Shown here: one piece after another, positions 7,779 through 57,227 of the stretch
Numbering within the stretch: position 1 is the stretch's first letter
How the letters are laid out: each line of letters starts with the position of its first letter
NCBI GenBank assembly: GCA_963807605.1
Contig: CAWECG010000001.1
Coordinates: 1-64,000, forward strand
DNA: 64,000 bases
Source: Candidatus Bathyarchaeota archaeon
GTDB lineage: Archaea; Thermoproteota; Bathyarchaeia; 40CM-2-53-6; RBG-13-38-9
Direction of reading: 5' to 3'
Notes under the pieces: generated by a model
Databases searched by the model: none
Seen by the model: only the letters and a program-made list of their open reading frames with translations
Told to the model about the DNA's origin: nothing
Position numbers and translations under genes: made by a program

Positions 7779-9327
7779 CTAGACCTTTATTCTGCCTCGT
7801 TTTCCTGAAGGAACCTGATTCTTATCCACAAGATCGCTCAGTCCTGCCAGAGCTTTCTTGAAGTCTTTTGTGAGTTTTACTTCAGTTCCCTCTTCAGCCT
7901 GGGTGTGAGGCTCTCGTGCTCTCTTCTCTTCTGCTTCGAGGTAAGATTCTATTGTTTCCTGTTTTTCTTCTGTTTCTGGAGTGGGGAGTCTTCTGCGTAT
8001 GAGGATTTTGCTGTTTATGATCTGGACCATTTCCCATCCGTTATTCAGGTATTTTTCCAGCTTGTCTTCTGTGACGAGTTTGCTCTGGTACCGTGTTTCG
8101 TCTTGGGGGATGTGTTTCTCTTCTCTGAGTCTTGAGAGTTCGCTCTCGTAGAGGTCTAGCTCTTCTTCTATGGTGAGGTCTCTCTTGAGTCCTGTCATTT
8201 TGCTGATTCTTAGCATCTTGGAGGTCTACTCCGAAGAGGTTCCTGGCAAGGAGTTTGATTGCTTCAAGCTTCACCTGCTTGACCATGTCGCTCTGCTCTA
8301 GGGTGCTGGTTACTGTGCTCAGGAAGGGTTCGCAGTCTTGGTATTGTTGTCTCATGTCTGCTATCATGGGTGGTGGGAGTCTTCCTTTCTCTGTGCTGTA
8401 TCTGGCTTCGATGTCGCCTTTATGTCCGGCAAAGAATTGGAAGTATTGGTGGCCGATCTTTCCTTTATTCTCGGCGATGCTAAGTTGGGTTTCTGCGTAG
8501 GCTCTAAGAACGTAGGGTCTCTTGATGACTCCTGCTGCCCGCATATACTTTCTGATGAAGTGGGTGATCTTCTTTGTCATGGCGAATTTCTTTTCTGCTG
8601 CTCTGGGGCGTTCAGGACCGATTAAGGGTGTTTCTGGAGCTAGTTTCTCGCCGCCTCGCATTCTCTGTTCAAGGTATTCTTTGAGGATGCCACATCCTTC
8701 TTGGGATAGGAATGTGAAATATTTCTTTCTGGTCTTGCTGAGTGTTGATCTTACAACGATCATTGTGGGGATCTTCTCGAAGGTTACCTGTCCATTCTCA
8801 ATCTTTAGCTCTGATAAGTCTCCGATGGTTAGGCCGTCGCTTCCGTCATGGTTTCCGATGCTTTCAGGTCTGAGGTCTGCAAACGCCATCAGGGCTACAG
8901 CGAGCCTTATTCTTGGTGGAGCGGTGCGGAGGATTCTGGCCAGTTCTGACTGTGTGGGTATCTGCTCATTCTCAATGGTTGGGGTGGCATTGGGGTTAGT
9001 GACCTTGATGGTTCTGGTTAATGTGATGTTGTTGTATCTGAGCCAGGACTTTACTATCTTTAGCAGTCCGATTATGTAGCCTGGAGACTTCTTTTGGGCT
9101 TCAAGATCGGTCACCAGGTCTTCAAGAGAATTCTGGAGCTGTTTCTTATTCGTCCTAGCTGATCTGGTCAGTTCTTGCGGGGTTTTGGATAGGAGCTCAC
9201 AGGCTTTTCCAAGCCTTCTCAATGCAACCTCAGCGGTTAAGGGACTGCCCCTTGACAGGTTCCTGAGCCAACGCTGCAGATCTGCATTCTTCAGAAGATG
9301 GCTGTACTTTCCGCCTTTCTGAGACAA
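7779..9327 (-). CDS. Tyrosine integrase of the tRNA-Arg-linked island; C-terminal part shifted by one extra base near 8206
   Basis: LRPES (R), LSK (K), YVLR, GH and RY catalytic motifs in ORF 8041-9327. Deleting one A in gct-aag-aat-cag gives DAKISKMTG, joining ORF 7779-8216. Confidence 0.8.
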
Positions 9328-10393: not shown

Positions 10394-10847
10394 CTTGGGG
10401 AGTCACGTCCTTTATCTGTTTGGCTGGAATGCCAGCTACAATCGCGTAGTCAGGCACGTCACTAGGTACAACCGCGCCTGCTGCGACTATCGCTCCCTCG
10501 CCTACTACAACATTAGGCAGGATTATTGCGCCTGCCGCTATCCAAGCGCCTCTCTTTATCCAGACTCTTTGTGGACCCTTATGGTAGAGGTTGAGCCTTT
10601 GGTGGAATGGGCTCGCCCCAGAATGAGTAATTATCATGACGAAAGGGGCTATCGAAGCCTCGTCGTCAATCCTGATGTACTCTGGATATTGCCCATCCAT
10701 CAAGACGAAGTTTCCAATATACACTCCTTGACCGATTTTCACCCCGCAGAGTCTATGAAATAATACTCTCAAAGGATAATAGGGAGCGAGCCAGGCGAAG
10801 ATCCTGAATATCCTGCTGCCAAGCTTCCAACTCTTCCTCGGCTTCAT
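10362..10847 (-). CDS. Hexapeptide-repeat (left-handed beta-helix) acyltransferase
   Basis: IGQGVYIG, AWIAAGAIILPNVVVGEGAIVAAGAVV, VAGIPAK. Confidence 0.88.
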   Translation of the reverse strand: MKPRKSWKLGSRIFRIFAWLAPYYPLRVLFHRLCGVKIGQGVYIGNFVLMDGQYPEYIRIDDEASIAPFVMIITHSGASPFHQRLNLYHKGPQRVWIKRGAWIAAGAIILPNVVVGEGAIVAAGAVVPSDVPDYAIVAGIPAKQIKDVTPQGEGGQSPRLA

Positions 10848-17055: not shown

Positions 17056-18891
17056 TTGGTCGATCTTAATGCCTTAGTCTCTGCAGAGTCCGGCAGGCTT
17101 CTCCTACAGGGAAATGAAGCGATAGTGAGGGGGGCTCTAGAGGGTGGTGTGAAGGTCGTAACAGCCTACCCCGGAACTCCTTCATCAGAGATTCTAGATA
17201 CATTCTATGAGATATCTGACCGGACCAAGGTATATTCTGAATACTCCACCAATGAGAAGGTAGCTCTCGAGGTAGCTGCAGGAGCCGCCATCTCGGGCTT
17301 GAGGGCTCTTTGCGCGATGAAGCATGTTGGGCTAAACGTGGCTTCTGACGCCTTTGTGACCCTCGCCTATACGGGGGTAAAGGGCGGATTCGTAATCGTG
17401 ACCGCTGACGATCCTTCATGTTGGAGCTCACAGAACGAGCAAGACAACAGACACTACGCTAGGCTTGCGAACGTACCGATGTTCGAGCCATCTAACAGCC
17501 AAGAGGCAAAAGACATGACACTGTCAGCTTTGGAGATCTCTGAGCAGCTTGAACTTCCAGTCCTCTTGAGAACCACGACCAGAATAAGTCATACATTAAG
17601 CCCTGTGTCTTTGAATACCATTAGAAGAATATCTCGCAAAGGAACATTCGTGAAAGACCCAGACCGCTTTGTCATGGTTCCGCGCAACGCGCTTAAGATG
17701 CATGATGTCCTCTTGGACAAAATGAAAAAAGCCGTTGAAATTAGTGAAGCTTCGACTTACAACAAGATAATTCGGAAAGATGGCGAGGTAGGAATGATAA
17801 CTTCCGGCGCGGCCTTCAACTACGCTATTGAGGCAGCAAATAAGCTCGGAATGAAAGCCTCGATCCTCAAACTGGGTATGACTTACCCCCTGCCTTCAAG
17901 ATTAATTCTCAAATTCGTAGAGAATTGTAGCAAGATATTCATCGTCGAAGAACTTGACCCCGTACTGGAGAATGATGTGAGGAGTATAACTTCCACCCTA
18001 GAAACGAAACCCCGAATTGTCGGGAAGCTGACAGGACATTTTCCGAGGAGTAGAGAATACTCTACTGAGATCGTATACGATGGAATCGCCAGAGATCTTG
18101 ACCTGCCGACATTCTTGGAAAAGAAGGGTTTGAAACCCATCAGTATACCCGATTCGCTCCCCCGGCCTCCGATACTCTGCGCAGGGTGCCCGCACAGAGC
18201 TTCGTTCTATGTCATGAAGAATACGCTCAGCAAGAACATTGTCTATTGCACTGACATAGGATGCTACGCTCTTGGTATACAGCCGCCACAGGCGGTGGGC
18301 GACCTACTGATATGCATGGGCGCGAGTCTAGGAACCGCAAGCGGAATAAGTCTATCTCAAGGCGAGCCTGCAGTAGCGATAGTCGGAGACTCAACCTTTT
18401 TCCACGCTTCCATACCCGCCCTTATCAATGCTGTGTACAACAACCACAGGATCGTGGTCGTAGTCTTGGACAATTCTACTACTGCCATGACCGGATTTCA
18501 GCCGCACCCTGGTGTCAAAACTGAGAAAGGCAACAGAGTGATGATAGAGGATGTTGCGAATGGTTGCGGAGTCAAGTACGTTAGAGTTGTGGATCCGATG
18601 AATGTGAAGGAGACCAAGAAGATCCTCAGTGAAGCCGTGGGCTTTCAGGGCCCATCCGTTGTCGTTCTCAGGCATATCTGCTCTATATATGAGAGGAGAC
18701 AGGGGATAAGACATCGCCCATATACAGTATCTGAGAAAGAATGTGACGGATGCCTAGCTTGCATCAAGGCCTTCGGCTGTCCCGCTTTTCACATCGTCGA
18801 CAACAAGGCAAAGATCGACGAAGTCCTATGTACAGGATGCGGATTCTGTGTCCACATCTGTCCAAAGAAGAGCATTCAACAGTTCAAGTGA
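17056..18891 (+). CDS. iorA: Indolepyruvate:ferredoxin oxidoreductase alpha subunit
   Basis: GNEAI, YPGTPSSE, MKHVGLNVA, SSQNEQD, LCAGCPHR, DIGCY, GDSTFFH and C-terminal ferredoxin motifs. Confidence 0.95.
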   Translation: MVDLNALVSAESGRLLLQGNEAIVRGALEGGVKVVTAYPGTPSSEILDTFYEISDRTKVYSEYSTNEKVALEVAAGAAISGLRALCAMKHVGLNVASDAFVTLAYTGVKGGFVIVTADDPSCWSSQNEQDNRHYARLANVPMFEPSNSQEAKDMTLSALEISEQLELPVLLRTTTRISHTLSPVSLNTIRRISRKGTFVKDPDRFVMVPRNALKMHDVLLDKMKKAVEISEASTYNKIIRKDGEVGMITSGAAFNYAIEAANKLGMKASILKLGMTYPLPSRLILKFVENCSKIFIVEELDPVLENDVRSITSTLETKPRIVGKLTGHFPRSREYSTEIVYDGIARDLDLPTFLEKKGLKPISIPDSLPRPPILCAGCPHRASFYVMKNTLSKNIVYCTDIGCYALGIQPPQAVGDLLICMGASLGTASGISLSQGEPAVAIVGDSTFFHASIPALINAVYNNHRIVVVVLDNSTTAMTGFQPHPGVKTEKGNRVMIEDVANGCGVKYVRVVDPMNVKETKKILSEAVGFQGPSVVVLRHICSIYERRQGIRHRPYTVSEKECDGCLACIKAFGCPAFHIVDNKAKIDEVLCTGCGFCVHICPKKSIQQFK

Positions 18892-27329: not shown

Positions 27330-27878
27330 ATGGTAAAGAAGCAATCAGTAGATTTTGAAACTCTAAGAGCAGTTACGTTAGACCTAGCCTTCAGCCCTAA
27401 CGGTGACGTTGAGAAGAAGCTTACTGCTCAGCTTCAGGCGAATAAGAAAACTCTCGACCTTGCCATGTACTCCTTCACGAATACAAGGCTAGAACAGGTA
27501 ATAGAAGCAAGAGCCAAAGCAGGAGTCACAACCCGAATCATCTTCGATAAGGGTTGCACAACTGGCTCACAAGCCAAGATTCATGACCGACTCGCAAAAA
27601 CACCCAACATTACCGTCCGACTCTGCAATCCCATCGGTTACATAATGCATGACAAGTACGGCATCCACGACGGCCAGGCTGTCACAACTGGATCGTACAA
27701 TTGGACGTTTAGCGCTCAAATTGGCAACTTCGAGAACGAAATAATCACAGACGATCCCGACGCAGTTCTAGCCTACCAGCAGAACTTCGAGACAGTCTGG
27801 GGAAAGTCGAAGAGCGAGGCACGGACCCTCAGAGGGGTTAGGCGATTTTTCCGACGTTTCACGGTGACTAGATTATGA
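27330..27878 (+). CDS. Phospholipase D/Nuc-family protein with a single HKD motif (probable ATG 27330)
   Basis: FSP, LAMYSFT, MHDKYGIHD...TGSYNWT...NFEN; GAGGT RBS. Confidence 0.88.
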   Translation: MVKKQSVDFETLRAVTLDLAFSPNGDVEKKLTAQLQANKKTLDLAMYSFTNTRLEQVIEARAKAGVTTRIIFDKGCTTGSQAKIHDRLAKTPNITVRLCNPIGYIMHDKYGIHDGQAVTTGSYNWTFSAQIGNFENEIITDDPDAVLAYQQNFETVWGKSKSEARTLRGVRRFFRRFTVTRL

Positions 27879-29251
27879 AGAAACATTATAAACCATGGAG
27901 ATTAGGAAACCTGCTCACCGCAGGATACCTCTTCACCAGGTACTCCGACTACGTCTGTCATGACTGCATGAACCGCTTCCCTCGAGGCTTCAGAGGACGG
28001 GGAAGGCTGGTCAGCTTGCGGCATCGAGGCGACCACCACGTCACCGGGTTTGGACTAAGAGGCCTAGTTCCGCTCGTTCATCCGTCACTCAAGCAATACC
28101 TTGTTTCTCTGGACTACCTGAGAAGCCTTGTCACGGATACAGCCGGTACACCAATCTGGAATCCAACCAAAGAACAGAGAGAAGCCGCAGCAGCCGCAGG
28201 CGACATTGATTACAGTAGCGTCTACGAGAATGCAGGTTATCCTCACGACGATGACCAGGGAAGACAGGGCAGCTGCACCGCTTGGGACCTGATTCATCAC
28301 CTGATATACTGGCTCATCAAGAAGCTCGGAAAGTTCGCGGGAGTAATCCTGTCCGCCGCCTACGCCTACAGCTGGATAAGGAAGCGCGGAGGCCTCAGCA
28401 CCACTCAGGACACCGGCGGCAACATGATCGACGTCTGCTACACTGAGGTTGAGAGAGGATGCTGCTGGAACCCAACTATGCCTTACTCCGACACAAACTG
28501 CTCTAAGAAACCATCCGCGGCAGCCGAGACGGAAGCGGCAACCAACAAACTGCCGGCCGGCACAAAAATTGAGCGTGTTCTACCTGGAGACTTCAAAGCA
28601 GCGCTCCTCGCGACTGGAGGCCCGATTAACGGAGGGATCCCCGTCGACAACGCCTTTGAGAACGCAGTGATCGGGGGCTGGGTGACAAGCCCGGACGTGA
28701 ACAAGCCAGCTTCACGAATCAAAAGGTTCATCCGGTGGCTTCTACGGCCCCGCGGGATCCTCGGCTACCACGCCGTGGACATCGTGGGAGTTGTAACCCT
28801 GACTGCGCCTGACGGCTCGACTGGCGAGTTCGTCAAGCTGAAGAATAGCTGGGGCGACACCGGCGATCACAGCTACTGGAAACTATTCAAGACTTGGATA
28901 ACCAGCTACATCAACGACATCGAGGCCTACAAGATCACCGTTCCAACTCCCACACCGACTACTCAGTATACCCTGACGGTTCAGAAGACGGGGCAGGGAA
29001 CTATCAAGCCCTATGACGCAGGAAGCTACAAGCTAGACGCTGGAACCCAAGTAATCCTAACTCCCACAGCTGCAACAGGATATGCTTTCAGTTCTTGGAG
29101 CGGAGACGTCACAAGCACAAACCCCTCTTTAACAATCACAATGACGAAAGACATGACTGTAACTGCGACTTTCATCTCTACTACTCCGACGCCGGCGAAG
29201 GCCACTATCACGTTGAACCTGGATAAGACCGTATCGGGAAGTTGGTCTTGA
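27875..29251 (+). CDS. Papain-like (C1) cysteine peptidase with C-terminal InlB B-repeat-like domain
   Basis: DQGRQGSCTAW, GYHAVDIVG, KNSWG; PTPTPT linker; YTLTV...GYAFSSWSGD...VTATF. Confidence 0.88.
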   Translation: MKKHYKPWRLGNLLTAGYLFTRYSDYVCHDCMNRFPRGFRGRGRLVSLRHRGDHHVTGFGLRGLVPLVHPSLKQYLVSLDYLRSLVTDTAGTPIWNPTKEQREAAAAAGDIDYSSVYENAGYPHDDDQGRQGSCTAWDLIHHLIYWLIKKLGKFAGVILSAAYAYSWIRKRGGLSTTQDTGGNMIDVCYTEVERGCCWNPTMPYSDTNCSKKPSAAAETEAATNKLPAGTKIERVLPGDFKAALLATGGPINGGIPVDNAFENAVIGGWVTSPDVNKPASRIKRFIRWLLRPRGILGYHAVDIVGVVTLTAPDGSTGEFVKLKNSWGDTGDHSYWKLFKTWITSYINDIEAYKITVPTPTPTTQYTLTVQKTGQGTIKPYDAGSYKLDAGTQVILTPTAATGYAFSSWSGDVTSTNPSLTITMTKDMTVTATFISTTPTPAKATITLNLDKTVSGSWS

Positions 29252-29632
29252 ATGATGCCGCTTGAATTTCTGATACCTGCGGGCGTCGGCGTCGCCGCGA
29301 TAATCATCGCCGTCTCAGTCGCACTCTACCGGAACGATGCTGGTCAAGAGCGGATGACCTCGACGGTGGATCCCTTCGTCGGAACAGCCGCCATACTTCT
29401 CATAGTGATCGGGGCTATCGGGCTTTTCGGTGCCGCCTATCTCATGCCCGACTATCTTGGACAAGCGATGACCTTCGCCCAGTTCTGCCTTAACACGGCC
29501 CTTGGAATGCTGGGCATAACCCTCTACATGAAGTTCGCGGCTGGAAGGCAATCAATCGCTGAGTTGGCGATGGCAGTCGAGAATCAGCAATCACAAATTA
29601 AGGCTCTCACGGAGATCGCCGAGGCGCGTTGA
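29252..29632 (+). CDS. Three-TM membrane protein (holin-like topology)
   Basis: Three hydrophobic helices and a coiled-coil C-terminal tail. Confidence 0.6.
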   Translation: MMPLEFLIPAGVGVAAIIIAVSVALYRNDAGQERMTSTVDPFVGTAAILLIVIGAIGLFGAAYLMPDYLGQAMTFAQFCLNTALGMLGITLYMKFAAGRQSIAELAMAVENQQSQIKALTEIAEAR

Positions 29633-29767
29633 ATGGACCCGGTCAGCATAGCCGCGCTTATCGTCGCCTTAATCGCTCTTATCTACGCCTCGCTTCTCGC
29701 CGTGCTCAGTTTTAGTTATGCTTACCTTTTGAACCGGAAGCTTCGCCGGTTGCTTCTTGGAGGATGA
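29633..29767 (+). CDS. 44 aa single-TM protein (not in the ORF track)
   Basis: MDPVSIAALIVALIALIYASLLAV...RKLRR. Confidence 0.6.
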   Translation: MDPVSIAALIVALIALIYASLLAVLSFSYAYLLNRKLRRLLLGG

Positions 29768-29851
29768 AGAAGTGCCCTGGAGAATACCAATCTTTCTCGC
29801 CGCCGTGCTTCTGGCCGGCTGGATGATTGATGGTTACGAGCGTGATAGTCG

Positions 29852-30388
29852 TTGAAGTTTACGTTCGACCGAATAATCCTCATCGACTTATGCCTCTTCG
29901 CCTTCCTCCAGATCGGCGGACAAATTGGATTCCTCAGCTTTCTCGCATACGGTCGCTGGCAGAACGCGTATGTGACGTGGGACTGGTTTGACCAGATAAC
30001 CCACCGCAGCGGGGCCCTCCTGCTCTGTATGCTCTTCATCAAGGTCTTTGAGATGCCCCAATTCATGAAGAAGCGGGGCTTCGACCGTTGGCTTGTCTGG
30101 GTGCCCTGCACGGCCGTTCTCTGCACCATGATCCTAGCGGTTCTCTACGAATTTCTTGAGTTGACGATAACGTGGCTTCACCTGATGCCTCCGACTGAAA
30201 TGTTTGCAACCTTGAGTAATTCGTTCTGGGTAGATGTGCCTCACGGCTTGGACGGTTCAGTCATGGCGTCTCTGTTCTACGTCGTTTTGGAGGAGCCGAG
30301 AATTGAAGAAGTCTCAAGCAATTCTACTGACGATAATTCTGCTTACTATCCCGGTCATCCCTTCGACAAGCGCCCTACATTCCGATAG
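29852..30388 (+). CDS. Multi-pass membrane protein
   Basis: About 4 TM helices; WFDQITH and YEFLE motifs. Confidence 0.6.
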   Translation: MKFTFDRIILIDLCLFAFLQIGGQIGFLSFLAYGRWQNAYVTWDWFDQITHRSGALLLCMLFIKVFEMPQFMKKRGFDRWLVWVPCTAVLCTMILAVLYEFLELTITWLHLMPPTEMFATLSNSFWVDVPHGLDGSVMASLFYVVLEEPRIEEVSSNSTDDNSAYYPGHPFDKRPTFR

Positions 30389-31286
30389 TCCAAAAGTAGG
30401 TAACCGAATAGGTAAAGCCGTAGCCTATCTCGTCAGCCACTTCAACCCCAAGGTCGGACTAATCTATGAGAGCGAGGATCCGGGAACGCATTGGCTCAAC
30501 CGTACTGAGTATCCTTCTTATCGCTGGAATTATTCTTCTACTTACTGGCTTTATTCTGACAATCTATTTGCCGAGTACGCTCTTGCGCCTTTTGCTCCGG
30601 ACACCTCGGACAAGATCAACCAGACCATTCAGCGATACCATCCTCCGCCCTCTGGCAAATTCGAAGCATGCTTCGGTCAACCAGTCGGGCCCGACCGACT
30701 CGCTCGTGATGTCATCCTCGCCACATCCAGAGACTTTGTGGTTCTTCTACGCCTCCACGATGGACCTGCTGGCAATCCCCGAATCCCTTATGCTGACTCA
30801 ATGATTTACCGAGCCCTCTCAGAGTATTGGCTTGGACATCTGGACGAGGCGCGAAGAATAGTCAAGCAAGTTCACGACATGTGGAACGGTTCCCTCCTTG
30901 TCGACTATGGAGTCACGCAAAAGATTCTTACGAGAGGCAACGCTCCTAGTGATCTCGGCTTCGGCCTCAATTTCAAAATCGCTCTACTCCTCTACGCCTC
31001 CCAGATTACCGGGGCCAACTTCTCAGACTTCTCACAAATCGAGGAATACTTATGGACGATGCAAAACCCCGACGGCGGGATCGCGAGTCTCAGCCAAAAC
31101 GGCAAACCATTGGGCTCGGCGAACTGCGAGACGACAAGTCTCACGCTACTGATCTACAATTCTGTTTTTATTTCACACTTGCAGCAGCGTGAGACTGCAG
31201 TTCCGGAAGTTCACTCACTCCACATAATAGCAGTGCTCATGGTAATCCCAATTCTAACATCAAAAATAAAAAGGTGTAGGAAATGA
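30303..31286 (+). CDS. Secreted helical-barrel-like protein with PEF-CTERM-like anchor (probable TTG start 30303)
   Basis: Signal peptide MKKSQAILLTIILL...; QNPDGG; C-terminal VPE-hydrophobic helix-KIKR. Confidence 0.65.
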   Translation: MKKSQAILLTIILLTIPVIPSTSALHSDSPKVGNRIGKAVAYLVSHFNPKVGLIYESEDPGTHWLNRTEYPSYRWNYSSTYWLYSDNLFAEYALAPFAPDTSDKINQTIQRYHPPPSGKFEACFGQPVGPDRLARDVILATSRDFVVLLRLHDGPAGNPRIPYADSMIYRALSEYWLGHLDEARRIVKQVHDMWNGSLLVDYGVTQKILTRGNAPSDLGFGLNFKIALLLYASQITGANFSDFSQIEEYLWTMQNPDGGIASLSQNGKPLGSANCETTSLTLLIYNSVFISHLQQRETAVPEVHSLHIIAVLMVIPILTSKIKRCRK

Positions 31287-31627
31287 ATGGAAAAACTAAC
31301 AGCACCGGCTACAAGTTAGGCGAGCTCACCGCTGAGATGAAAGCAATGAACAACAGCATCACATCGCTGACCTCGAAGTTTGATAATTTTATGAATCAGT
31401 GTCAGCAGAACCGAACGGGTTGCCCGCCCGTCGTCCAGCTGCCCCAAATAGAGAAACGCCTCACGGACGTTGAGACATCCCTAGAGAGCACCGCGAAGGC
31501 GACTGTCGCTAAGAACCTGTCGAGGGCCAGCTACTTCAAACTGGCCGCGACGTCCGGCTCCATCGCGTCCGGCATAATACTCGCTACCTGGTACGGCTAC
31601 CAACTTTACATAGCAATTCACCACTAG
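31283..31627 (+). CDS. Coiled-coil protein with C-terminal TM helix
   Basis: Heptad N-terminus; hydrophobic C-terminus. Confidence 0.6.
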   Translation: MNGKTNSTGYKLGELTAEMKAMNNSITSLTSKFDNFMNQCQQNRTGCPPVVQLPQIEKRLTDVETSLESTAKATVAKNLSRASYFKLAATSGSIASGIILATWYGYQLYIAIHH

Positions 31628-31639
31628 AGGCTGGGAAAT

Positions 31640-31867
31640 CTGATAGTTCTACTCACCCCAACAGTCATAGCCTACATCATAATCAGTCTCGGCATCGGCT
31701 TCTTCGTGGAGGCCGTCGCGAACATCATCTACTGGCTGGTAGTACACAACTTCAAGAACGACACATTCTGGAGCTTCATCCTCTTCATACTCTTCGAGAT
31801 AGGACGGGCACTCCGCGCCCTCGGCGGAATAATCCTCTTCATAGTCGGACTTAGATCGCTGCCATGA
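31640..31867 (+). CDS. Small membrane protein (CTG start, not in the ORF track)
   Basis: 75-codon hydrophobic frame filling the gap, with ATGA overlap to the next gene. Confidence 0.5.
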   Translation: MIVLLTPTVIAYIIISLGIGFFVEAVANIIYWLVVHNFKNDTFWSFILFILFEIGRALRALGGIILFIVGLRSLP

Positions 31868-32133
31868 AACCGAGAAGAATTGACTCAGAACCTTGGAGGG
31901 ATGAAACCTACATCAACAAGGACGAAATGTTTCACTGTATGAAATGCAGCGGACCCGTCGAGACCGGCGAACCCTACGCAAGCATCATCATAGACAGGCA
32001 TGTTCCCTTTGATTCCGCCAAGCAAGGACTCCCCTTCATAGCCGAATCTTACGTGACAACCGCGGAGCTCTGGTGCATGACCTGCTATCGTACTCGAGAG
32101 AAGAAACCTGACGAGGCTGAGTGTATAGCTTGA
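31864..32133 (+). CDS. Zn-ribbon protein
   Basis: CMKC...CMTC. Confidence 0.55.
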   Translation: MKPRRIDSEPWRDETYINKDEMFHCMKCSGPVETGEPYASIIIDRHVPFDSAKQGLPFIAESYVTTAELWCMTCYRTREKKPDEAECIA

Positions 32134-32335
32134 CCTGCCCCCGCTGCGGATCCCCAATGGCCCTCGTTGCTGACATCGTCGTCTGCACTCTCTGCCCGAT
32201 GGCGATCCCGAGGTTCCTGGTGGTTTGAGTCTCTGCGACACCTGCCATTACACCCGAGCCTACTGTCCCCGAGGCATAACGGCGGGTAAGGATGTGACGG
32301 TCTGCTACTACTATGAGAGAGAAGGCATACTTTGA

Positions 32336-32719
32336 ATGAGCACTCCAAATGAACCAGTGACCCGTGGTGCACCGAAGAATACTGGCGGTAGACCACAGCG
32401 TAAGCCAGTTCCTTGGCCTAAGAGATTCAAACTTGACACCAGAGACGACGCTAGGGCTTTTCACCGCAACTATATCAAGACGGTTTGGACTGAGAACCCG
32501 ATGGATAGTCGCGCCGCTGGATCCTTGAATATGGCTTTACGATTGCTCTATGAGCTGGAGGGGTGGATTCAGAAGGCTCCACTGCAGATTATTCAAGCTC
32601 AGACCGTTGTGAAGTTTAACGTTGAAGAGTTGAAGCAGAAACTTGACGCTTTCAGCCAGGAAGAACAGCGAGTCCTCGCTAGAGCAATTGCCAAACTTGA
32701 AGCTAGCACTAGCACATAA
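32336..32719 (+). CDS. Probable terminase small subunit
   Basis: GAPKNTGGRP motif; position directly upstream of TerL. Confidence 0.6.
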   Translation: MSTPNEPVTRGAPKNTGGRPQRKPVPWPKRFKLDTRDDARAFHRNYIKTVWTENPMDSRAAGSLNMALRLLYELEGWIQKAPLQIIQAQTVVKFNVEELKQKLDAFSQEEQRVLARAIAKLEASTST

Positions 32720-34010
32720 GGATCCCATTAGTTTAGCGTCGCTCTATGCTAAAACGAACCCTAGTCCCGGACAGACTAGATTCATGGAGGCTATCTGTTC
32801 CACAGCTCCAGAACACCGTCAAATAGTAGTGAAGACTTGCAGGAAAGGCGGCAAAACCATAAGCGTCGCAGTTGCATTCGCCAGCCTATTCCTCACAGAA
32901 CCCACCATCAGGATCTTTCACCTATCTGGTAGCTATCTTCAAGCCTCAAGACTCTACGATTACTTCAAGCCAATAGTTGTCAATGAAGAACTCTTTCCAG
33001 ATGCTCTCGAGTCAGAGCCAACAAGATACTTTACCAGATTCAAGAAAGGCGGCTGCCTAGAAGTAGCAACCGCCAGCGCAAAGAGCATCCGAGGCGGAGA
33101 CTATGACATTCTCAGCATCGACGAAGCCGTTCTGGTTCCTCCACCCTTGATTGATGCGGCTTGGGCACTGCCACGTGCCTCTAAACGTCCAAAGAGAATA
33201 ATCACTAGCACCGCCAGCCCCGAGGTCAACCTTGAATGGTTCCTCCGGCTTTGGCAGCAAGCACAGCAATTAGGCTTCGAACCCTTTGAATGGCAACCTG
33301 AAGAATGCACTTGGCTCAACACCGACGATAATGCTCTCGCCAGAAAGATACTTGACAGCGTCACCTACGCAATTGAGTATGAGGGCAAGATTGGCGAGCG
33401 GAAAGGACTGGTCTGGAGCGGCAACCTAGTCAATGAGAAAGGCGAAGCCAAATCACTCATCGACAGTGCAATAGTGGATCCGCGAAGGGCAGAACAATAC
33501 CCCATCCCCCTGGCGCCTCCTGCAACCGAATGGTCATGTGGTCTCGACTGGGGATTCACACACCCCACCGTCCTCACAGTCTGGGAGAAACAGGGCGAAA
33601 CCGTCTATGCTCGTGACTGCAGAATATGGAGTGAGACGCGGTTCACAGAGATAATGCAGGAGATCAAGGAGGACTACGGCAACATTACAGTCAACGCTGA
33701 CTCCTCCAGTCCCGGTGAGATTGCGGAGTTGAAGAGTCTCGGCGTCACCGTCGTCCCCGTCATCTTCAGCAAGGAGAAGAGTGAGCTTATCAGTCATATT
33801 CGCTGGCGTCTCGAGAACAGGTTCCTGAAGATTCCAGACCCGGAAGTTGACAGCCGATTTTTCACTCTTGTTCAACAGATGAAAGCCTACCACTACGATG
33901 CCAGCGGTAAGCCGGCCAAGGTAAACGACGACGCTGTTGACTCAATGATTTGTGGAATGAAATTCTTTCTGCATCCACCAGTGATGCCGTTTGAGGCGAA
34001 AATCTTCTAA
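32643..34010 (+). CDS. terL: Terminase large subunit
   Basis: CRKGGKT Walker A, SIDEA Walker B, GLDWGFTHP, ADSS, NDDAVDS nuclease motifs. Confidence 0.92.
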   Translation: MTLSARKNSESSLEQLPNLKLALAHKDPISLASLYAKTNPSPGQTRFMEAICSTAPEHRQIVVKTCRKGGKTISVAVAFASLFLTEPTIRIFHLSGSYLQASRLYDYFKPIVVNEELFPDALESEPTRYFTRFKKGGCLEVATASAKSIRGGDYDILSIDEAVLVPPPLIDAAWALPRASKRPKRIITSTASPEVNLEWFLRLWQQAQQLGFEPFEWQPEECTWLNTDDNALARKILDSVTYAIEYEGKIGERKGLVWSGNLVNEKGEAKSLIDSAIVDPRRAEQYPIPLAPPATEWSCGLDWGFTHPTVLTVWEKQGETVYARDCRIWSETRFTEIMQEIKEDYGNITVNADSSSPGEIAELKSLGVTVVPVIFSKEKSELISHIRWRLENRFLKIPDPEVDSRFFTLVQQMKAYHYDASGKPAKVNDDAVDSMICGMKFFLHPPVMPFEAKIF

Positions 34011-34013
34011 GGT

Positions 34014-35789
34014 TTGAGAATAATGCCACACTGGCCTACACTATTCAACCGGACCAAGCAGGCAATCATAGAAGTTCCACCATCACCATCGCCAATTCAA
34101 CTCTATGAGGGACATGTCTGGGGAACAGCGCCAGATGATGAGACACCATTTAAAGGCATCAACTACTCCGTAACAGTTGACCAGACTGGTAAAGTACGAC
34201 CCGGCGCAATGTCGCGAACCCAGGTCTGGAAGCAGAACGATAAAATCTTTGAGATGCGCAGCGAAGTCAGCAGCGCCTTCATGGCCCTCGCCGGCTACGT
34301 CATCGCAAGAGGCTTCGTCACAGTTGCAACAGATCCAAAGGATCCCACTGCTATTAATGCTAAGGACATTTGTGACAAGTACACGCAGGATATTGGATTA
34401 GACCAGATAATCTATGAAGGCACCATGGACCTGGCGAAGCACGGCAACCTCTTCCTTGAGAACAAGATAGTTACCGGTAAACTCTTGGACACCCGACTCT
34501 TTCCCTGGCAGGACGCAATGGAGCCCGCGACTCTGACAGCTGACGGTGAGATTGCGACCTGGCGACAATATGTACCCGGCAAGCAATCCATCGAGTTTGA
34601 ACCTGAAGAAATAGTACACATAAGGCTTCCACCCTTGGATGAGCAACGATTCGGCACCCCACTGCTTCAATCCGTCAAGAAAGTGTTGGCTACAAATGAC
34701 CAGTTGGAAACCGACGTCGGAGCCTACATGCATGGATCCGCCTTTCCAAAGGAAATATTCAGTTTGAGCAGTCCACAGCCTGAGCGGGAACTCTCTGTTA
34801 ACAGTGTTCAACTAGCTTATGCCCGTCTTCGACAGTGGAATCCCGGCGACAAATTCGTCACCGACATGAATGTGAACTATCAAACAGCGGGAGTTGGCAG
34901 ATTTGAAAGTCGCCTGATACCCAGTTTCGTCAGCGATAACGCGGATAAGTGTGTTAGCGGCCTCATAATGCCAACCACATCGTACCTGCGAAGTGCAACT
35001 GAAGCCTCCGCCGCCACCATGGAGGATCATGCGAATCGTGCGCTTATAATGCCTATTCAGCGGATTTGGAAGCGCAAGATTGAGCTTGAAATGTTCAAGC
35101 CTCTCCTAGTCGGCGAAGGCATAGACGAGAAATATGTTCCCCAAATTGTTTTTGGATTACCAACAGAAGAGGAAGTCGCAAGTAAAACAGTGAGGATCAT
35201 CAGCATGTACACAGCTGGACTCCAGCAAGGCCAGCCGGGACTGCTTGACCGAGCGGAGTGTCGCGGCCTCTTAGACATTGCAGACCCTGAGAAACCACCT
35301 GAACCAATGCCGGCAACACAGCCGGGAAAAACAGGTTTGAACGCACCCACGCCCGCGGAACCAGTGACACCTCCTGAAGATGAAGGTGAACCTGCGGAAC
35401 CTGAAACTGAGAATGATGATGAGACGCCGGAGAAGAGACCGGGGTTAACTCCAACATTGCCGAAGACTCCTGATAGTGAGGAGCCTGAACAGGAAGAAAA
35501 ACCCGTGAAGGGTAGGCCTCACATCAATAAGCTTCATGAACGAAGCAAGTTGTGGACTGACCAACTGCAACAGGTAGTTAAGAATTACATGGAGAAGAAG
35601 GTCAATGAGAAAGAAGCCCGCAGTCAAGCAGTCACAGTCATTAATGTTCACTGTGAGCAGGTTGGAAAGATTGCTCTTGAACGATTGAAGACTACGAGTC
35701 TACCGCCGGAGACTGTTAGCCAGATTGAACGTTTGAAGCAGCAGGCTCTTCGAGACTTCGAGAAGATACTGAAGGATGTTAAAACTTGA
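34014..35789 (+). CDS. Portal protein with Pro/Glu-rich C-terminal extension
   Basis: Follows TerL; HGNLFLE, EEIVHIRL, FGTPLL. Confidence 0.85.
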   Translation: MRIMPHWPTLFNRTKQAIIEVPPSPSPIQLYEGHVWGTAPDDETPFKGINYSVTVDQTGKVRPGAMSRTQVWKQNDKIFEMRSEVSSAFMALAGYVIARGFVTVATDPKDPTAINAKDICDKYTQDIGLDQIIYEGTMDLAKHGNLFLENKIVTGKLLDTRLFPWQDAMEPATLTADGEIATWRQYVPGKQSIEFEPEEIVHIRLPPLDEQRFGTPLLQSVKKVLATNDQLETDVGAYMHGSAFPKEIFSLSSPQPERELSVNSVQLAYARLRQWNPGDKFVTDMNVNYQTAGVGRFESRLIPSFVSDNADKCVSGLIMPTTSYLRSATEASAATMEDHANRALIMPIQRIWKRKIELEMFKPLLVGEGIDEKYVPQIVFGLPTEEEVASKTVRIISMYTAGLQQGQPGLLDRAECRGLLDIADPEKPPEPMPATQPGKTGLNAPTPAEPVTPPEDEGEPAEPETENDDETPEKRPGLTPTLPKTPDSEEPEQEEKPVKGRPHINKLHERSKLWTDQLQQVVKNYMEKKVNEKEARSQAVTVINVHCEQVGKIALERLKTTSLPPETVSQIERLKQQALRDFEKILKDVKT

Positions 35790-36526: not shown

Positions 36527-36817
36527 ATGAATTATGGAGAGTTCAAGAAACGTGATCCCGCCCTAGCAAACGCTGTGGCGGAGCTAGTTGGAAACTACAG
36601 CCCCGACTATTATCGAGGTTTCATCCGAGCTGTCAATATCGTTCAGGGCGACCGAGCATCCAACATTGATCGTTCTGAGGAGTACAAGGCTTACTGCAAA
36701 TTCAAGATTGGAGAACCCGGGGAAGTACAAATCAAAGACATGGTAGTCCAAGAACCAGAGATGCCGGAATTCTACGCGCCACAAAAGAGGAAACGAAAGT
36801 ATGTCGCAGAAGCTTGA
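36527..36817 (+). CDS. Hypothetical viral protein
   Basis: GGTGA RBS. Confidence 0.6.
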   Translation: MNYGEFKKRDPALANAVAELVGNYSPDYYRGFIRAVNIVQGDRASNIDRSEEYKAYCKFKIGEPGEVQIKDMVVQEPEMPEFYAPQKRKRKYVAEA

Positions 36818-38561
36818 AGTCAAGGAATCCTTCGAGTGGGCAGGGCCAATAAGCCTCTACAAGACTGAGAATGACGGTGCAAGAATCTATAAGGGCCGTG
36901 CTATTAGCGCCCGAATAAGCGGCAACAAAGTCAAATATGCTCCTGAAGAATTAAAATCAGCAGCAAAAAGCCTTGCCGACCATCCCCTAAACATCAACCA
37001 TAAAATTCCATTACCCTTCGACTCTACTAGGCAAACCATTGATAATCGCACATTAGACTCAGACTATAATCCTAAAACAAAAGCAGTCGAAGTCATCTAT
37101 CGTGTGGTTGATAAAAAAACAAACGACCTCTACGATCAGGGGAAAATCAATCACCTTAGCATCGAAGGAGCCGCACGAGATAAGCAGCCAAGCACAGGCG
37201 GATCTGAGGAAGCACAGGGATTACACTTCAATGGTCTAGCCTTAGTCACAAAAGATGTAACACCGGGGGACCCGACGACAAACATCAGTCTATGGGAGAC
37301 TGTTCAATTCTACGAGACTACCGTCGACCGGTTGCTAGGTGAACGGCCCGACCTTGCAGCCGCTACTAACGAGGAAGGCAAGACCCTTAGCCAAATGCTT
37401 AAGGATGCTCAAGTTGTCGCCGTCTGCAAGTGTGGCACCGAGTTTGATCCCACGTTAAAGGCTTGTCCCAAATGTAACGAACACTTCGAAGTGAAAGGCA
37501 AGCTAGTCTTACGATCACCAGATAACGAGGTGAAAAAAGATATGAGTAATAAAGTAGAAACTCCAAAATCAACCGAGAAAGTTGAGGAAGCAGGCTGGGG
37601 CGCCGCAGACTGGCCCAACTCCTGCTTCGCCTACGTTCCTAAAGACGGTAATCCAAGCGACCGTAAACTGCCCTACAAGAACAAGGATGGATCCGTAGAC
37701 ATACCCCATGTGAGAAACGCGTTGGCTCGTCTAGACCAGACTCAAGGCATCCCACCTGCCGAGAAAGAGGAGATTCGAACAATGCTGCAGAATCTCCTCA
37801 AGAAAGACAATCCAGACTATGAACCCTCAGAGAATAAAGCCCGCGTTGTAGCAGCTAAGGAAGAGAAGGATCCCCACATCGAGATCCCAGCGGTGTATGA
37901 TGGAATTGCGGGAGCGATGCATGAGAAGAAGATCGCGCCTGAAGTCTATCAAGAACTCAAACGCATCGCGACTAACAGCATCAACAAGGCCCAAGACCTA
38001 GACAGCAAGATCAATATTATTCGAGACCTGCAGAACAGTCAGATCGCTGAGATCAGTAAAGAAGTTGCCAAGGCAAACGAGGAACTCAAGAAGGTCGCAG
38101 CTTCAGCATCAACGAAGGCTGAAGTTATGGATGCCGTAACCAAGGTCGACGTTAAACTCAGCGGCGAACTAACTGAGACTAAGGAGCAGGTTCAAAAGCG
38201 TATCGAAGCAGGCGAGCTAGACAAGAAAGCAACGGAGACACAAGTAAAAAGCTTCAGCGAAACCATCACAGCACTCGGCCAGCGACTCGAAGCCTTCACG
38301 AAGAAGGTTGATGAAACCATGGAGAACATTCGCAAGGGCATGGAATCCTTCGATAAACGTGTTGACGGTGCAGTGAAGATAGCTGAGACAGTTAAGGAGA
38401 CTATTGAAAGCCGCAAGGCACTCAAGACTATACCGTTCAAAGGCACACACCCCGACGCATTGAAAGAAACTGTTGAAGCACCAGCAACACCGAAGACCGA
38501 GTCAACAGTTGACGAGGCTATTCAGGAAGCATGGACCAACAAGCTCAAGAAGAGACTGTAA
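36801..38561 (+). CDS. Prohead protease-scaffold fusion
   Basis: PLNINH...HLSIEG...GLALVT..PGDP protease-like N-terminus; CKC/CPKC; long coiled-coil C-terminus. Confidence 0.75.
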   Translation: MSQKLEVKESFEWAGPISLYKTENDGARIYKGRAISARISGNKVKYAPEELKSAAKSLADHPLNINHKIPLPFDSTRQTIDNRTLDSDYNPKTKAVEVIYRVVDKKTNDLYDQGKINHLSIEGAARDKQPSTGGSEEAQGLHFNGLALVTKDVTPGDPTTNISLWETVQFYETTVDRLLGERPDLAAATNEEGKTLSQMLKDAQVVAVCKCGTEFDPTLKACPKCNEHFEVKGKLVLRSPDNEVKKDMSNKVETPKSTEKVEEAGWGAADWPNSCFAYVPKDGNPSDRKLPYKNKDGSVDIPHVRNALARLDQTQGIPPAEKEEIRTMLQNLLKKDNPDYEPSENKARVVAAKEEKDPHIEIPAVYDGIAGAMHEKKIAPEVYQELKRIATNSINKAQDLDSKINIIRDLQNSQIAEISKEVAKANEELKKVAASASTKAEVMDAVTKVDVKLSGELTETKEQVQKRIEAGELDKKATETQVKSFSETITALGQRLEAFTKKVDETMENIRKGMESFDKRVDGAVKIAETVKETIESRKALKTIPFKGTHPDALKETVEAPATPKTESTVDEAIQEAWTNKLKKRL

Positions 38562-56387: not shown

Positions 56388-57227
56388 TTAACCTGTTAGC
56401 GGATGCTCTCTCTTTCTCAACACCGAAACTGCAAGAACTACTACTATCAGCACAGGCATGACTTGCGGGAGTTCAGGGATTGGCTGTCCAGCATCCAGCC
56501 ATAAGGTGTGAAAAACAGTCGCCACCGCGTTTGCCGCCAGATTAAGGCTTACCCCTACTCGGGTCTTGAACTGGGGATCACTCCAGTTGTAGTGAGTATC
56601 CATCCACGTCGCATTAGGTGGCACAAACATAGTGTTGTATGCTAGTTCTAGAGTCGCTTGATAAGCCGTTGTGTGGTTAAGCGGTCCCATCACCATGATC
56701 GACTGGTCAAACATGGATTGGTGGTCGTTGACGTAGGTTTCATAGTCTTCATGATGCTTCTCAACACCCCACGGCGTATTCGCTCCCATAACGTGGCCCC
56801 AAACTGCCATGTCAGAAATATAGTGGCTTACGGCTCCGGCAACCATGACCCCGCCGGAAAAGTTGCCTTTCTTTAGTAGAGCTAGTGCTTCGTTGTAGGT
56901 CTCGTTGGCTCTTCTAGCAGATGAGTCGTCAGTTACTTGGTGTTTCTCATTAAAATACACGTGGTGGTTGAATTGGTCACCGTAGCCGCCCATGTTCTTC
57001 GGCCGGTCCGGCAATTCTGTACCGTAATACAACCAGTTGATGTTATTCTTGAAAATTGCAGTCTCACTGACAGGCAGAAGTAGAATTGCTTTCTCAGCTA
57101 TCCAGTCGTGTGTGCCCATAGCGGGATGGGAAGGTGAGGTGGACCAGCCGCCGTTGCTCCAAGCATAGACAGGAGTCCCGTAAGTTAAGAATAAGATTAT
57201 GATAGAAAAGACTGCGAGGCTCTTCAA
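56388..57227 (-). CDS. Secreted Zn-dependent phospholipase C/S1-P1-fold enzyme with PEF-CTERM-like anchor
   Basis: Signal peptide then W; THDWI, ELPD, HH, HYISD, HEDYE; C-terminal IPE-TM-RKR. Confidence 0.85.
   Translation of the reverse strand: MKSLAVFSIIILFLTYGTPVYAWSNGGWSTSPSHPAMGTHDWIAEKAILLLPVSETAIFKNNINWLYYGTELPDRPKNMGGYGDQFNHHVYFNEKHQVTDDSSARRANETYNEALALLKKGNFSGGVMVAGAVSHYISDMAVWGHVMGANTPWGVEKHHEDYETYVNDHQSMFDQSIMVMGPLNHTTAYQATLELAYNTMFVPPNATWMDTHYNWSDPQFKTRVGVSLNLAANAVATVFHTLWLDAGQPIPELPQVMPVLIVVVLAVSVLRKREHPLTG

Follow-up and report, generated by a model that had tools for sequence, protein, structure and literature searches.

A conserved peptidase and Lipocone-like gene pair beside the packaging genes of Bathyarchaeia tailed viruses, a candidate envelope-attack cassette

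Results

A translationally coupled gene run precedes the terminase genes of a Bathyarchaeia provirus

We analyzed a run of small genes within the first 64,000 nucleotides (nt) of contig CAWECG010000001.1 from a Candidatus Bathyarchaeota archaeon (assembly GCA_963807605.1), a stretch that we refer to as the window. A tailed provirus fills the window from ~19 kb to ~56 kb and is bordered on its left flank by a host gene of the 2-oxoacid:ferredoxin oxidoreductase type (17056-18891). The provirus encodes a ParB-like protein, a phosphoesterase, the terminase large subunit (TerL), portal, scaffold-like, tube and tape-measure proteins, and tail proteins with Laminin_G/carbohydrate-binding module (CBM) domains. 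It has no close relatives among 401 Bathyarchaeia genomes, where the best TerL match is 30% identical. From 27267 up to the terminase, the genes run on the + strand, and those between 27267 and 31627 all abut or overlap through start and stop codons (ATGA, TGAATG, TTGA), which agrees with the tight coupling just 5' of the terminase that a preliminary description of this locus had noted; TerS-like, TerL and portal genes come next. The run encodes a phospholipase D (PLD)-family protein, a cysteine peptidase, a 327-amino-acid (aa) exported protein and six small membrane proteins (126, 44, 27-32, 178, 114 and 53 aa), rather than the five counted previously. The peptidase, the 178-aa protein and the 114-aa protein belong to a core that recurs in other Bathyarchaeia viruses, and we therefore describe these first.

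The first core gene encodes a divergent, apparently active C1 peptidase

The window peptidase has no direct match to PF00112 at E<0.1 in Pfam, none in PHROG and none among Protein Data Bank (PDB) sequences, so its assignment to family C1 rests on its phmmer relatives, its catalytic residues and its fold. A phmmer search against 1.8 billion representatives returned 260 relatives with E-values down to 1.8e-15, among which the sole close one was P0002 (59% identity across the matched stretches). PF00112 is carried by 32 of the 40 aligned relatives, and the syntenic orthologues described below exceed its cut-off. Q128, C134 and H299 are invariant, while N324, in the motif N-S-W-G, is invariant in 10 viral proteases and nearly invariant over 40 sequences. 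An AlphaFold2 (AF2) model with a predicted local distance difference test (pLDDT) score >90 at residues ~85-355 matched xylellain (3ois, E 3e-14, TM-score 0.75) and cathepsins L, K and S (E ~1e-10) in Foldseek. The protein thus shows the sequence similarity, the ordered Gln/Cys/His/Asn set and the papain fold that define family C1 of clan CA. It lacks a signal peptide, and Kyte-Doolittle analysis detected no hydrophobic segment. Together, these findings point to a C1 peptidase that is divergent, apparently active and synthesized in the cytoplasm, and they uphold the earlier identification of a papain-like protease without an evident signal peptide. It is a near-unique protein, with relatives in only 5 of the 401 Bathyarchaeia genomes.

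The architecture of the peptidase comprises an N-terminal CxxC...H...H module (residues 1-62), the catalytic domain (~104-355), a PT linker (356-364) and an InlB B-repeat (Flg_new_2) at residues 365-433 (E 5e-14), so that the B-repeat domain on a PT linker recognized previously is also confirmed. Database matches of the B-repeat are all large extracellular-type proteins. In Pfam and NCBIfam, the protease matched only InlB B-repeat and List_Bact_rpt models, with no Pei (C71) domain or pseudomurein-binding repeats; together with the C1-type catalytic domain, this agrees with the statement that no pseudomurein endopeptidase was recognized. The N-terminal module is common to the window peptidase and that of locus L033, with the elements Y-W-x-R/K-R-x-L-N-L-L-T-L-G, R/P-Y/W-S, CxxC, V-S, H, H-R and F-G, and this Cys2-His2 module is virus-specific in the sequences compared. 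The stretch RR-x-x-N-L-L-T-L-G was considered as a twin-arginine translocation (Tat) signal, since the host does have TatC, and was rejected as unlikely: several members, the window protein among them, have KR or WR in place of the Arg pair, and the hydrophobic stretch spans just 8-11 residues before charged residues follow. A predicted complex of the peptidase with the 178-aa protein scored 0.00, which gives no verdict and speaks neither for nor against binding.

The second core gene encodes a Lipocone-like membrane protein

The 178-aa protein shows about four hydrophobic segments by hydropathy and had been described as holin-like. Our comparisons instead relate it to DUF2238. Precomputed annotation tables assign PF09997.15 to 11 of 13 of its database homologues, and by language-model features (Atlas) 29 of its 30 nearest clusters are DUF2238, with a score of 0.91. 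Across 17 sequences of the family, N38, Y40, H51, W80, E100, E103, P114, D128, G135 and Y143 are invariant. In a preprint on Lipocone proteins (bioRxiv 10.1101/2025.01.14.632903), the ancestral active site consists of a His in helix H2, a Glu in H3, an acidic residue near the end of H3, an Asp in H4 and a capping Gly near the end of H4. The preprint places DUF2238 in the Wok family, predicted integral-membrane enzymes that act on lipid head-group phosphate linkages, and describes this family as analogous to HKD cardiolipin synthase.

The viral family fits that Lipocone pattern through H51, E100, E103, D128 and G135, with helices assigned from residue order alone. Such an invariant His/Glu/Glu/Asp/Gly set in 17 sequences is an enzyme-like conservation pattern, unlike that of holins. 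We predict that the 178-aa protein is a DUF2238/Wok-type Lipocone and a lipid-head-group enzyme rather than a plain holin. The passages of the preprint consulted make no mention of a virus-borne, protease-linked Lipocone.

The peptidase and Wok genes form a conserved core in about eight viral lineages

We found that the two genes recur together in a fixed order, with the C1 peptidase gene followed by the Wok gene and usually by a gene for a coiled-coil protein of ~90-114 aa with a C-terminal transmembrane (TM) segment. A Wok profile search recovered four more Bathyarchaeia genomes and 13 database proteins, and all six strong Wok matches among the 401 Bathyarchaeia genomes (6/6) have a peptidase gene upstream. 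The pairing is present in the window and in loci L033, L036, L051, L052, L053, L054, L055/56, L057/58 and L059, which represent about eight lineages as defined by pairwise identity <80%. In all of the related loci from L033 to L059 apart from L036, the gene directly 5' of the Wok gene encodes a C1 peptidase; the one in L053 is divergent and was recognized by hhalign with 98.3% probability. TerL or portal genes lie 3' of the core in 7 of the 7 loci whose contig continues.

Two loci illustrate the range of this arrangement. L033 is a provirus of another genus, where the match to the 178-aa protein lies 2.3 kb 5' of TerL and a 335-aa C1 peptidase gene (PF00112, E 3.6e-11) is directly upstream. 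L036, an IMG/VR contig found with the protease profile, encodes a peptidase fused to C-terminal TM helices, followed by a TM protein, the Wok protein, a coiled-coil protein with a C-terminal TM segment, further TM and Zn-ribbon open reading frames (ORFs), TerS, TerL and portal. In place of the B-repeat, the L036 peptidase (7989-9314) has a Cys-rich domain and, at its C-terminus, two TM helices, and the cassette includes an extra 137-aa protein with a zincin-like HExxH motif (10399-10812).

Both peptidase and Wok genes have ratios of non-synonymous to synonymous substitution (dN/dS) of 0.12-0.29 in close pairs and are under purifying selection. Identities among related loci are 21-63%, and TerL proteins across the lineages are 21-30% identical. 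Viral contig scans with the window protease alone and with TerL alone gave no matches, a metagenome contig scan, whose patterns were too degenerate, gave one unrelated C1 locus only, and a further scan of genome contigs returned only loci already in the set, all from Bathyarchaeota/Bathyarchaeia metagenome-assembled genomes. A neighborhood of C1 protease and TM genes first noticed in a single genome is thus conserved among Bathyarchaeia tailed viruses, in the form of the peptidase-Wok core, and this constant pairing, upstream of TerL wherever the contig continues, supports a genuine functional link between the protease and its membrane partner. The literature that we searched does not describe such a module.

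A gene for a D12-class N6-adenine DNA methyltransferase (PF02086, E 3e-20) lies between the Lipocone and terminase genes in one sub-lineage (Table 1).

The third core member and the putative accessory genes of the run

The tail-anchored 114-aa protein, the third core member, is weakly similar to its counterpart in L054 (E 7e-4). A protein of ~90 aa with a YKLGEL motif and a C-terminal TM segment is encoded 3' of the Wok gene in L054, L056, L057, L058 and L059 and aligns weakly with it. The 126-, 44-, 27- and 53-aa ORFs match holins in size, TM count and position, features that are non-diagnostic, and the 126-aa protein is holin-like by these features alone. It is the sole small TM ORF run against PHROG, where it had no match. 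The 126-, 44- and 53-aa ORFs lack counterparts inside the other related cassettes. The 126-aa protein was also compared with the C-terminal TM region of the L036 protease as a possible Rosetta-stone link, which was set aside because a single-comparison BLASTP E-value of 0.12 is suggestive at most.

The PLD-family protein matches PF13091 (PLDc_2) with E 1.2e-22 and 80.6 bits, and its HxK(x)4D(x)6GSxN motif is legible in the translation as H-D-K-Y-G-I-H-D...G-S-Y-N, so the HKD enzyme recognized earlier is indeed present. The lipid hydrolysis then proposed for it is not supported, since nuclease models rank best: NucT reaches E 8e-20 in NCBIfam, versus 0.004 for cardiolipin synthase. Its PDB sequence matches are MitoPLD/Zucchini, Nuc (1byr) and NucT (6ehi). 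We regard it as probably an accessory nuclease, a bystander rather than a lipase of the cassette. In the slot that PLD occupies 5' of the protease, three related loci encode a 109-aa CxxC...HD...N...CHHDHH protein (L055, 6586-6915; L057, 6565-6894; L059, 6365-6694), which may be a non-orthologous, nuclease-for-nuclease replacement. An HNH label for this protein was not retained, as the motif was seen by eye alone and there was no Pfam match.

The N-terminus of the 327-aa protein resembles a signal peptide, its C-terminus carries a TM segment, and the protein has no Pfam or NCBIfam match. Its AF2 model (pLDDT 91) is an (alpha/alpha)6 toroid that aligned in VIA-align with MmpH (7qsj; Z 14.5, root mean square deviation 3.9, 223 aligned), dextran dextrinase (Z 14.4) and glycoside hydrolase family 15 (GH15) glucoamylases (Z 12.4), scores that indicate the fold class only because helical folds reach such Z values easily. 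Foldseek E-values were at least 3.6e-3, and an Atlas search returned GH15 as well as prenyltransferase-like clusters, whose toroids match too. The family comprises >130 unannotated proteins, mostly from Bathyarchaeia, with invariant E56, D86, D165 and E276. The host genome holds a paralogue, P0041, that is 50% identical. The model and these homologues suggest a Sec-exported, membrane-anchored, glycosidase-like protein captured from the host. It had been stated that no muralytic enzyme was recognizable; this holds for a Pei domain and is too strong overall, since the glycosidase-like ORF is a further candidate wall-degrading enzyme besides the protease.

The 327-aa family occurs both in cellular glycosylation neighborhoods (L024, 3973-4974) and in two unrelated tailed viruses, that of the window and L022/L023 (L022, 10001-11071). 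In the IMG/VR relative that carries the L036 cassette, the homologue is positioned after portal and outside the cassette. The 178-aa and 327-aa genes overlap by 86 nt in different frames (30303-30388), which is unusually long for an operon that is elsewhere coupled by 1-4 nt.

The coordinates of the run and of its neighbors are given in Table 1. The stops and starts of the CxxC ORFs at 31864-32335 overlap in a chain up to the TerS-like gene, and comparable CxxC ORFs precede the terminase in L057 and L033. Between portal and scaffold/major capsid protein (MCP), a 586-aa protein (36801-38561, +) with a coiled-coil C-terminal half matches no family in Pfam or PHROG. In the ESM Atlas it falls closest to viral clusters of the DUF6582, prohead serine protease and capsid maturation protease families, and it may be a fusion of prohead protease and scaffold. 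On the opposite strand, directly past the last tail-region gene and at the provirus's right edge, a 279-aa ORF (56388-57227, -) encodes a zinc-dependent phospholipase C domain (PF00882, E 1.5e-8) and is a further lipid-active candidate, of either host or viral origin.

Table 1. Genes of the cassette, its neighbors in the window and methyltransferase genes of related loci
Feature	Position	Strand	Basis or remark
Single-HKD PLD-superfamily protein, Nuc/NucT/Zucchini-like, 203 aa	27267..27878	+	PF13091; alternative ATG 27330; accessory, outside core
C1 (papain-family) cysteine peptidase, 458 aa	27875..29251	+	phmmer relatives, catalytic residues, fold
126-aa membrane protein, 2-3 TM, amphipathic coiled-coil-like C-terminus	29252..29632	+	Hydropathy; start abuts protease stop
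44-aa single-TM protein, basic C-terminus	29633..29767	+	Hydropathy
Single-TM mini-ORF, 27 aa (GTG) or 32 aa (TTG at 29757)	29771..29855	+	Stop overlaps next start (TTGA)
178-aa predicted DUF2238/Wok-like Lipocone membrane protein	29852..30388	+	Second core member
327-aa predicted exported protein, (alpha/alpha)6 glycosidase-like fold	30303..31286	+	TTG start behind GGAGGAG; AF2 model
114-aa coiled-coil protein, C-terminal TM (tail-anchored), YKLGEL motif	31283..31627	+	Third core member, weakly conserved
53-aa membrane protein, 1-2 TM	31706..31867	+	Hydropathy
Three small CxxC zinc-ribbon-like ORFs (89, 35, 36 aa), between cassette and packaging genes	31864..32335	+	Context only
TerS-like ORF	32336..32719	+	Assigned from position alone; context only
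TerL	32643..34010	+	Terminase_6C E 5.6e-5, phrog_5653 E 4.6e-14; context only
Portal protein	34014..35789	+	phrog_9232 E 7.7e-10; context only
D12 methyltransferase, L033	12618-13499		
D12 methyltransferase, L053	8930-9817	-	
D12 methyltransferase, L051	1-567	-	

Discussion

Our findings are best explained by a late-gene envelope-attack cassette, for lysis or egress, in a temperate tailed virus of Bathyarchaeia, although we consider this reading about evenly balanced between right and wrong. It is favored because the genes lie 5' of the packaging genes, are tightly coupled and combine a hydrolase with a binding domain and membrane partners. The membrane-fused peptidase of L036, the lack of any other lytic candidate in the provirus and precedents in phages support it as well. 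Scans of the provirus proteins found no other peptidase or glycosidase. The lysis cassette of lambdoid phages is located immediately upstream of the terminase, and among phage proteins in BFVD, C1 folds are found under the names 'N-acetylmuramidase' and 'Peptidoglycan binding-like'. What is observed at these loci is the identity of the domains, their intact catalytic signatures, the coupling and synteny of the genes and purifying selection, and from these we infer the timing, the substrates and lysis. The preliminary description had proposed an S-layer-cutting protease as endolysin, released by holins, perhaps with lipid hydrolysis. The conserved unit of protease and membrane genes agrees with its outline; the lipid role of the PLD protein and the generic character of the holins are not supported.

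In such a cassette, the core genes would be co-expressed with the packaging genes, and the membrane components would damage or permeabilize the membrane or detach lipid-anchored envelope components, with the Wok enzyme acting on lipid head-group phosphate linkages of the outer leaflet. Membrane damage would let the peptidase reach a proteinaceous S-layer or sheath, where its B-repeat would dock it, and the exported glycosidase-like protein might attack envelope glycan. In the window virus, the core would be extended by four tiny TM proteins and by this host-captured protein. The one cultivated Bathyarchaeia surrounds its membrane with an S-layer and an outer sheath of protein or polysaccharide (PMC10477458), an envelope that would call for several activities. 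A more specific and more tentative possibility is a three-part lysis system, in which the Lipocone takes the place of the holin, the papain-type 'endolysin' with its Zn module cuts the S-layer or sheath and the tail-anchored coiled-coil protein serves as a helper. There, Lipocone attack on lipid head groups or on lipid-linked envelope anchors or carriers could release or activate the peptidase.

Several findings weigh against an envelope-attack role. The Lipocone assignment is sub-threshold, with the 178-aa protein scoring 20 bits against DUF2238 (PF09997; E 6.5e-4) versus a curated cut-off of 26.4 and just 1 of 17 family members matching in our own scan, and what Wok-family proteins do biochemically is likewise only a prediction. 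The peptidase has no export signal and the cassette holds no proven holin; because the L036 fusion, if it lacks a signal peptide, would keep its enzyme domain on the cytoplasmic side of the membrane, a substrate in the cytoplasm or at the membrane face is possible. A PLD homologue is missing from all related cassettes, the 327-aa protein has no counterpart inside the others, and neither is part of the conserved module. The small TM ORFs other than the conserved partner have no detectable relatives and are perhaps accessory. The hosts are all uncultured.

The same genes could instead remodel the envelope on behalf of the lysogen or the virus, through superinfection exclusion, receptor masking or lysogenic conversion, modifying the surface without destroying the cell. 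We consider this unlikely. The host paralogue of the 327-aa protein and its many cellular homologues beside glycosylation genes would fit it, as would the placement of the exported protein elsewhere in the genome of the other carrier virus (L022) and the role of lipid or glycan-carrier modifier predicted for Lipocone/Wok enzymes. Yet in every lineage the core has the same orientation as the late packaging genes and is translationally coupled to them, a cytoplasmic protease without an export signal would be an odd surface modifier, and conversion genes are usually variable morons, unlike a core kept across lineages with such divergent TerL proteins. Improbable, in our judgment, is a role in host takeover or anti-defense, where the protease would cut cytoplasmic or membrane-face host proteins of defense, division or secretion and the lipid enzyme would rewire the membrane for replication. 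Synthesis in the cytoplasm, an N-terminal Cys2-His2 module that could bind protein or nucleic acid, the L036 topology at the inner membrane face and an adjacent PLD-type nuclease that could degrade host nucleic acid are all compatible with takeover, but the cassette sits at the end of the early/middle region and is coupled to late genes, surface proteins are where InlB B-repeat domains are typically found, and phage C1 peptidases with annotated context sit in lysis regions.

A morphogenetic protease, which would process capsid, scaffold, portal or tail proteins beside membrane genes that are unrelated passengers, is similarly improbable, and the evidence has weakened it. Its appeal is that the peptidase gene adjoins the packaging genes, that the product lacks a signal peptide and that scans of the head module found no Pfam or PHROG prohead protease, with PF04586 (S78) in 0 of 5 module-carrying genomes. 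However, the peptidase is strictly paired with a membrane enzyme, is fused to TM helices in L036 and carries a C-terminal B-repeat binding domain, and a scaffold-like gene precedes MCP. It also falls outside the prohead-protease class, being C1-type rather than S78, U35 or ClpP and encoded upstream of the terminase rather than between portal and capsid; to our knowledge, the known prohead proteases of Caudoviricetes are all of families other than C1. The canonical position is taken by the 586-aa protein, whose language-model features resemble those of prohead-protease/DUF6582 clusters (0.86-0.90), which is a lead only. That the genes share no function and lie together by chance is very improbable and already disfavored by synteny. 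Four small TM ORFs, the PLD protein and the exported protein do lack counterparts in related cassettes, but the three-gene order is kept across the lineages under purifying selection with overlapping start and stop codons, and the 21-63% identities of the related loci argue against one recent mobile insertion.

Returning to lysis or egress, the earlier remark that the exit of tailed viruses from S-layer archaea is poorly understood agrees with a 2024 review that lists no lytic enzyme besides pseudomurein endoisopeptidases and no verified archaeal holin (PMC10791045). In the literature searched, no system by which tailed viruses lyse S-layer archaea is described (PMC10791045, PMC12596118). The three-part system, if true, would give tailed viruses of S-layer archaea their first defined lysis mechanism and would be the first case of a virus using a Lipocone enzyme. 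A guess from a single genome has become a conserved module of three defined genes, with their catalytic signatures intact, in about eight lineages infecting one of the most abundant classes of sediment archaea, and concrete proteins can now be named for expression and assay. The predicted assignment would give the Lipocone/Wok family its first virus-borne, protease-linked context, and the exported (alpha/alpha)6 proteins of Bathyarchaeia are brought to notice as a large family that lacks annotation. Should lysis prove to be the wrong reading, these viruses would still share a conserved and unexplained module.

Comparison with known systems

The arrangement resembles the holin-endolysin(-spanin) cassettes of the lambda S-R-Rz/Rz1 type, in which a soluble hydrolase without a signal peptide, made up of a catalytic and a binding domain, is clustered and co-oriented with small membrane proteins directly upstream of the terminase. 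It differs in that the hydrolase is a C1 protease instead of a muralytic enzyme and that a membrane partner carries the invariant His/Glu/Glu/Asp/Gly set, whereas holins are fast-evolving and motif-free; a lytic function is here a prediction from the genes. No spanin logic applies because there is no outer membrane. In baculoviruses, V-cathepsin and chitinase form a comparable pair, a viral C1 cathepsin-like protease and a glycosidase that dismantle host barriers for release, but the host is eukaryotic, the enzymes are secreted as proenzymes, tissues are liquefied after death and the genome context is unrelated. C1 peptidases also lie in the annotated lysis regions of two phages detected by tblastn with the L033 orthologue: Thermoanaerobacterium phage THSA-485A (E 6e-15), where the C1A papain gene Tsac_2838 directly follows a GH25 lysozyme gene, and Alicyclobacillus phage MMB025 (E 2e-7), with a 753-aa annotated 'endolysin' that has a C1-like N-terminal domain. 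These annotations are non-experimental, the hosts are bacteria with peptidoglycan, a muramidase is present alongside, and there is neither an N-terminal Cys2-His2 module nor a Wok-family neighbor.

PeiP and PeiW (MEROPS C71) are clan-CA-type cysteine peptidases with a wall-binding repeat domain and, like the window peptidase, are made without a signal peptide. Encoded by the Methanothermobacter viruses psiM2 and psiM100, they are the sole lytic enzymes so far established for tailed viruses of archaea (PMC10791045). They pair a C71 domain with pseudomurein-binding repeats, whereas the window enzyme pairs a C1 domain with an InlB B-repeat; the one cultivated Bathyarchaeia has an S-layer and sheath with no pseudomurein reported, and no Wok partner has been described for Pei enzymes. 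In Sulfolobus viruses, PVAP of the virus-associated pyramids (STIV C92, SIRV2 P98) is a membrane protein of ~90-100 aa, with one TM segment and helical regions, by which virions leave through the S-layer (PMC10791045, PMC12596118). The tail-anchored coiled-coil protein is similar in size, but its TM segment is C-terminal and its topology therefore opposite, it shares no sequence similarity with PVAP and it belongs to a different virus realm; PVAP also acts alone, without enzymes.

Finally, the 178-aa protein shares with Lipocone/Wok proteins, whose relatives include VanZ, PTDSS1/2 and the lipid II phosphatase toxin TelC, a multi-helix membrane architecture, the His/Glu/acidic/Asp/Gly set, a weak PF09997 match and DUF2238 as its nearest group by features. 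It is shorter than a typical Wok protein, with about four hydrophobic helices instead of a core plus a two-TM extension, and lies under the Pfam cut-off. Lipocones of the TelC type act on the envelope as toxins, a likeness to the role suggested here.

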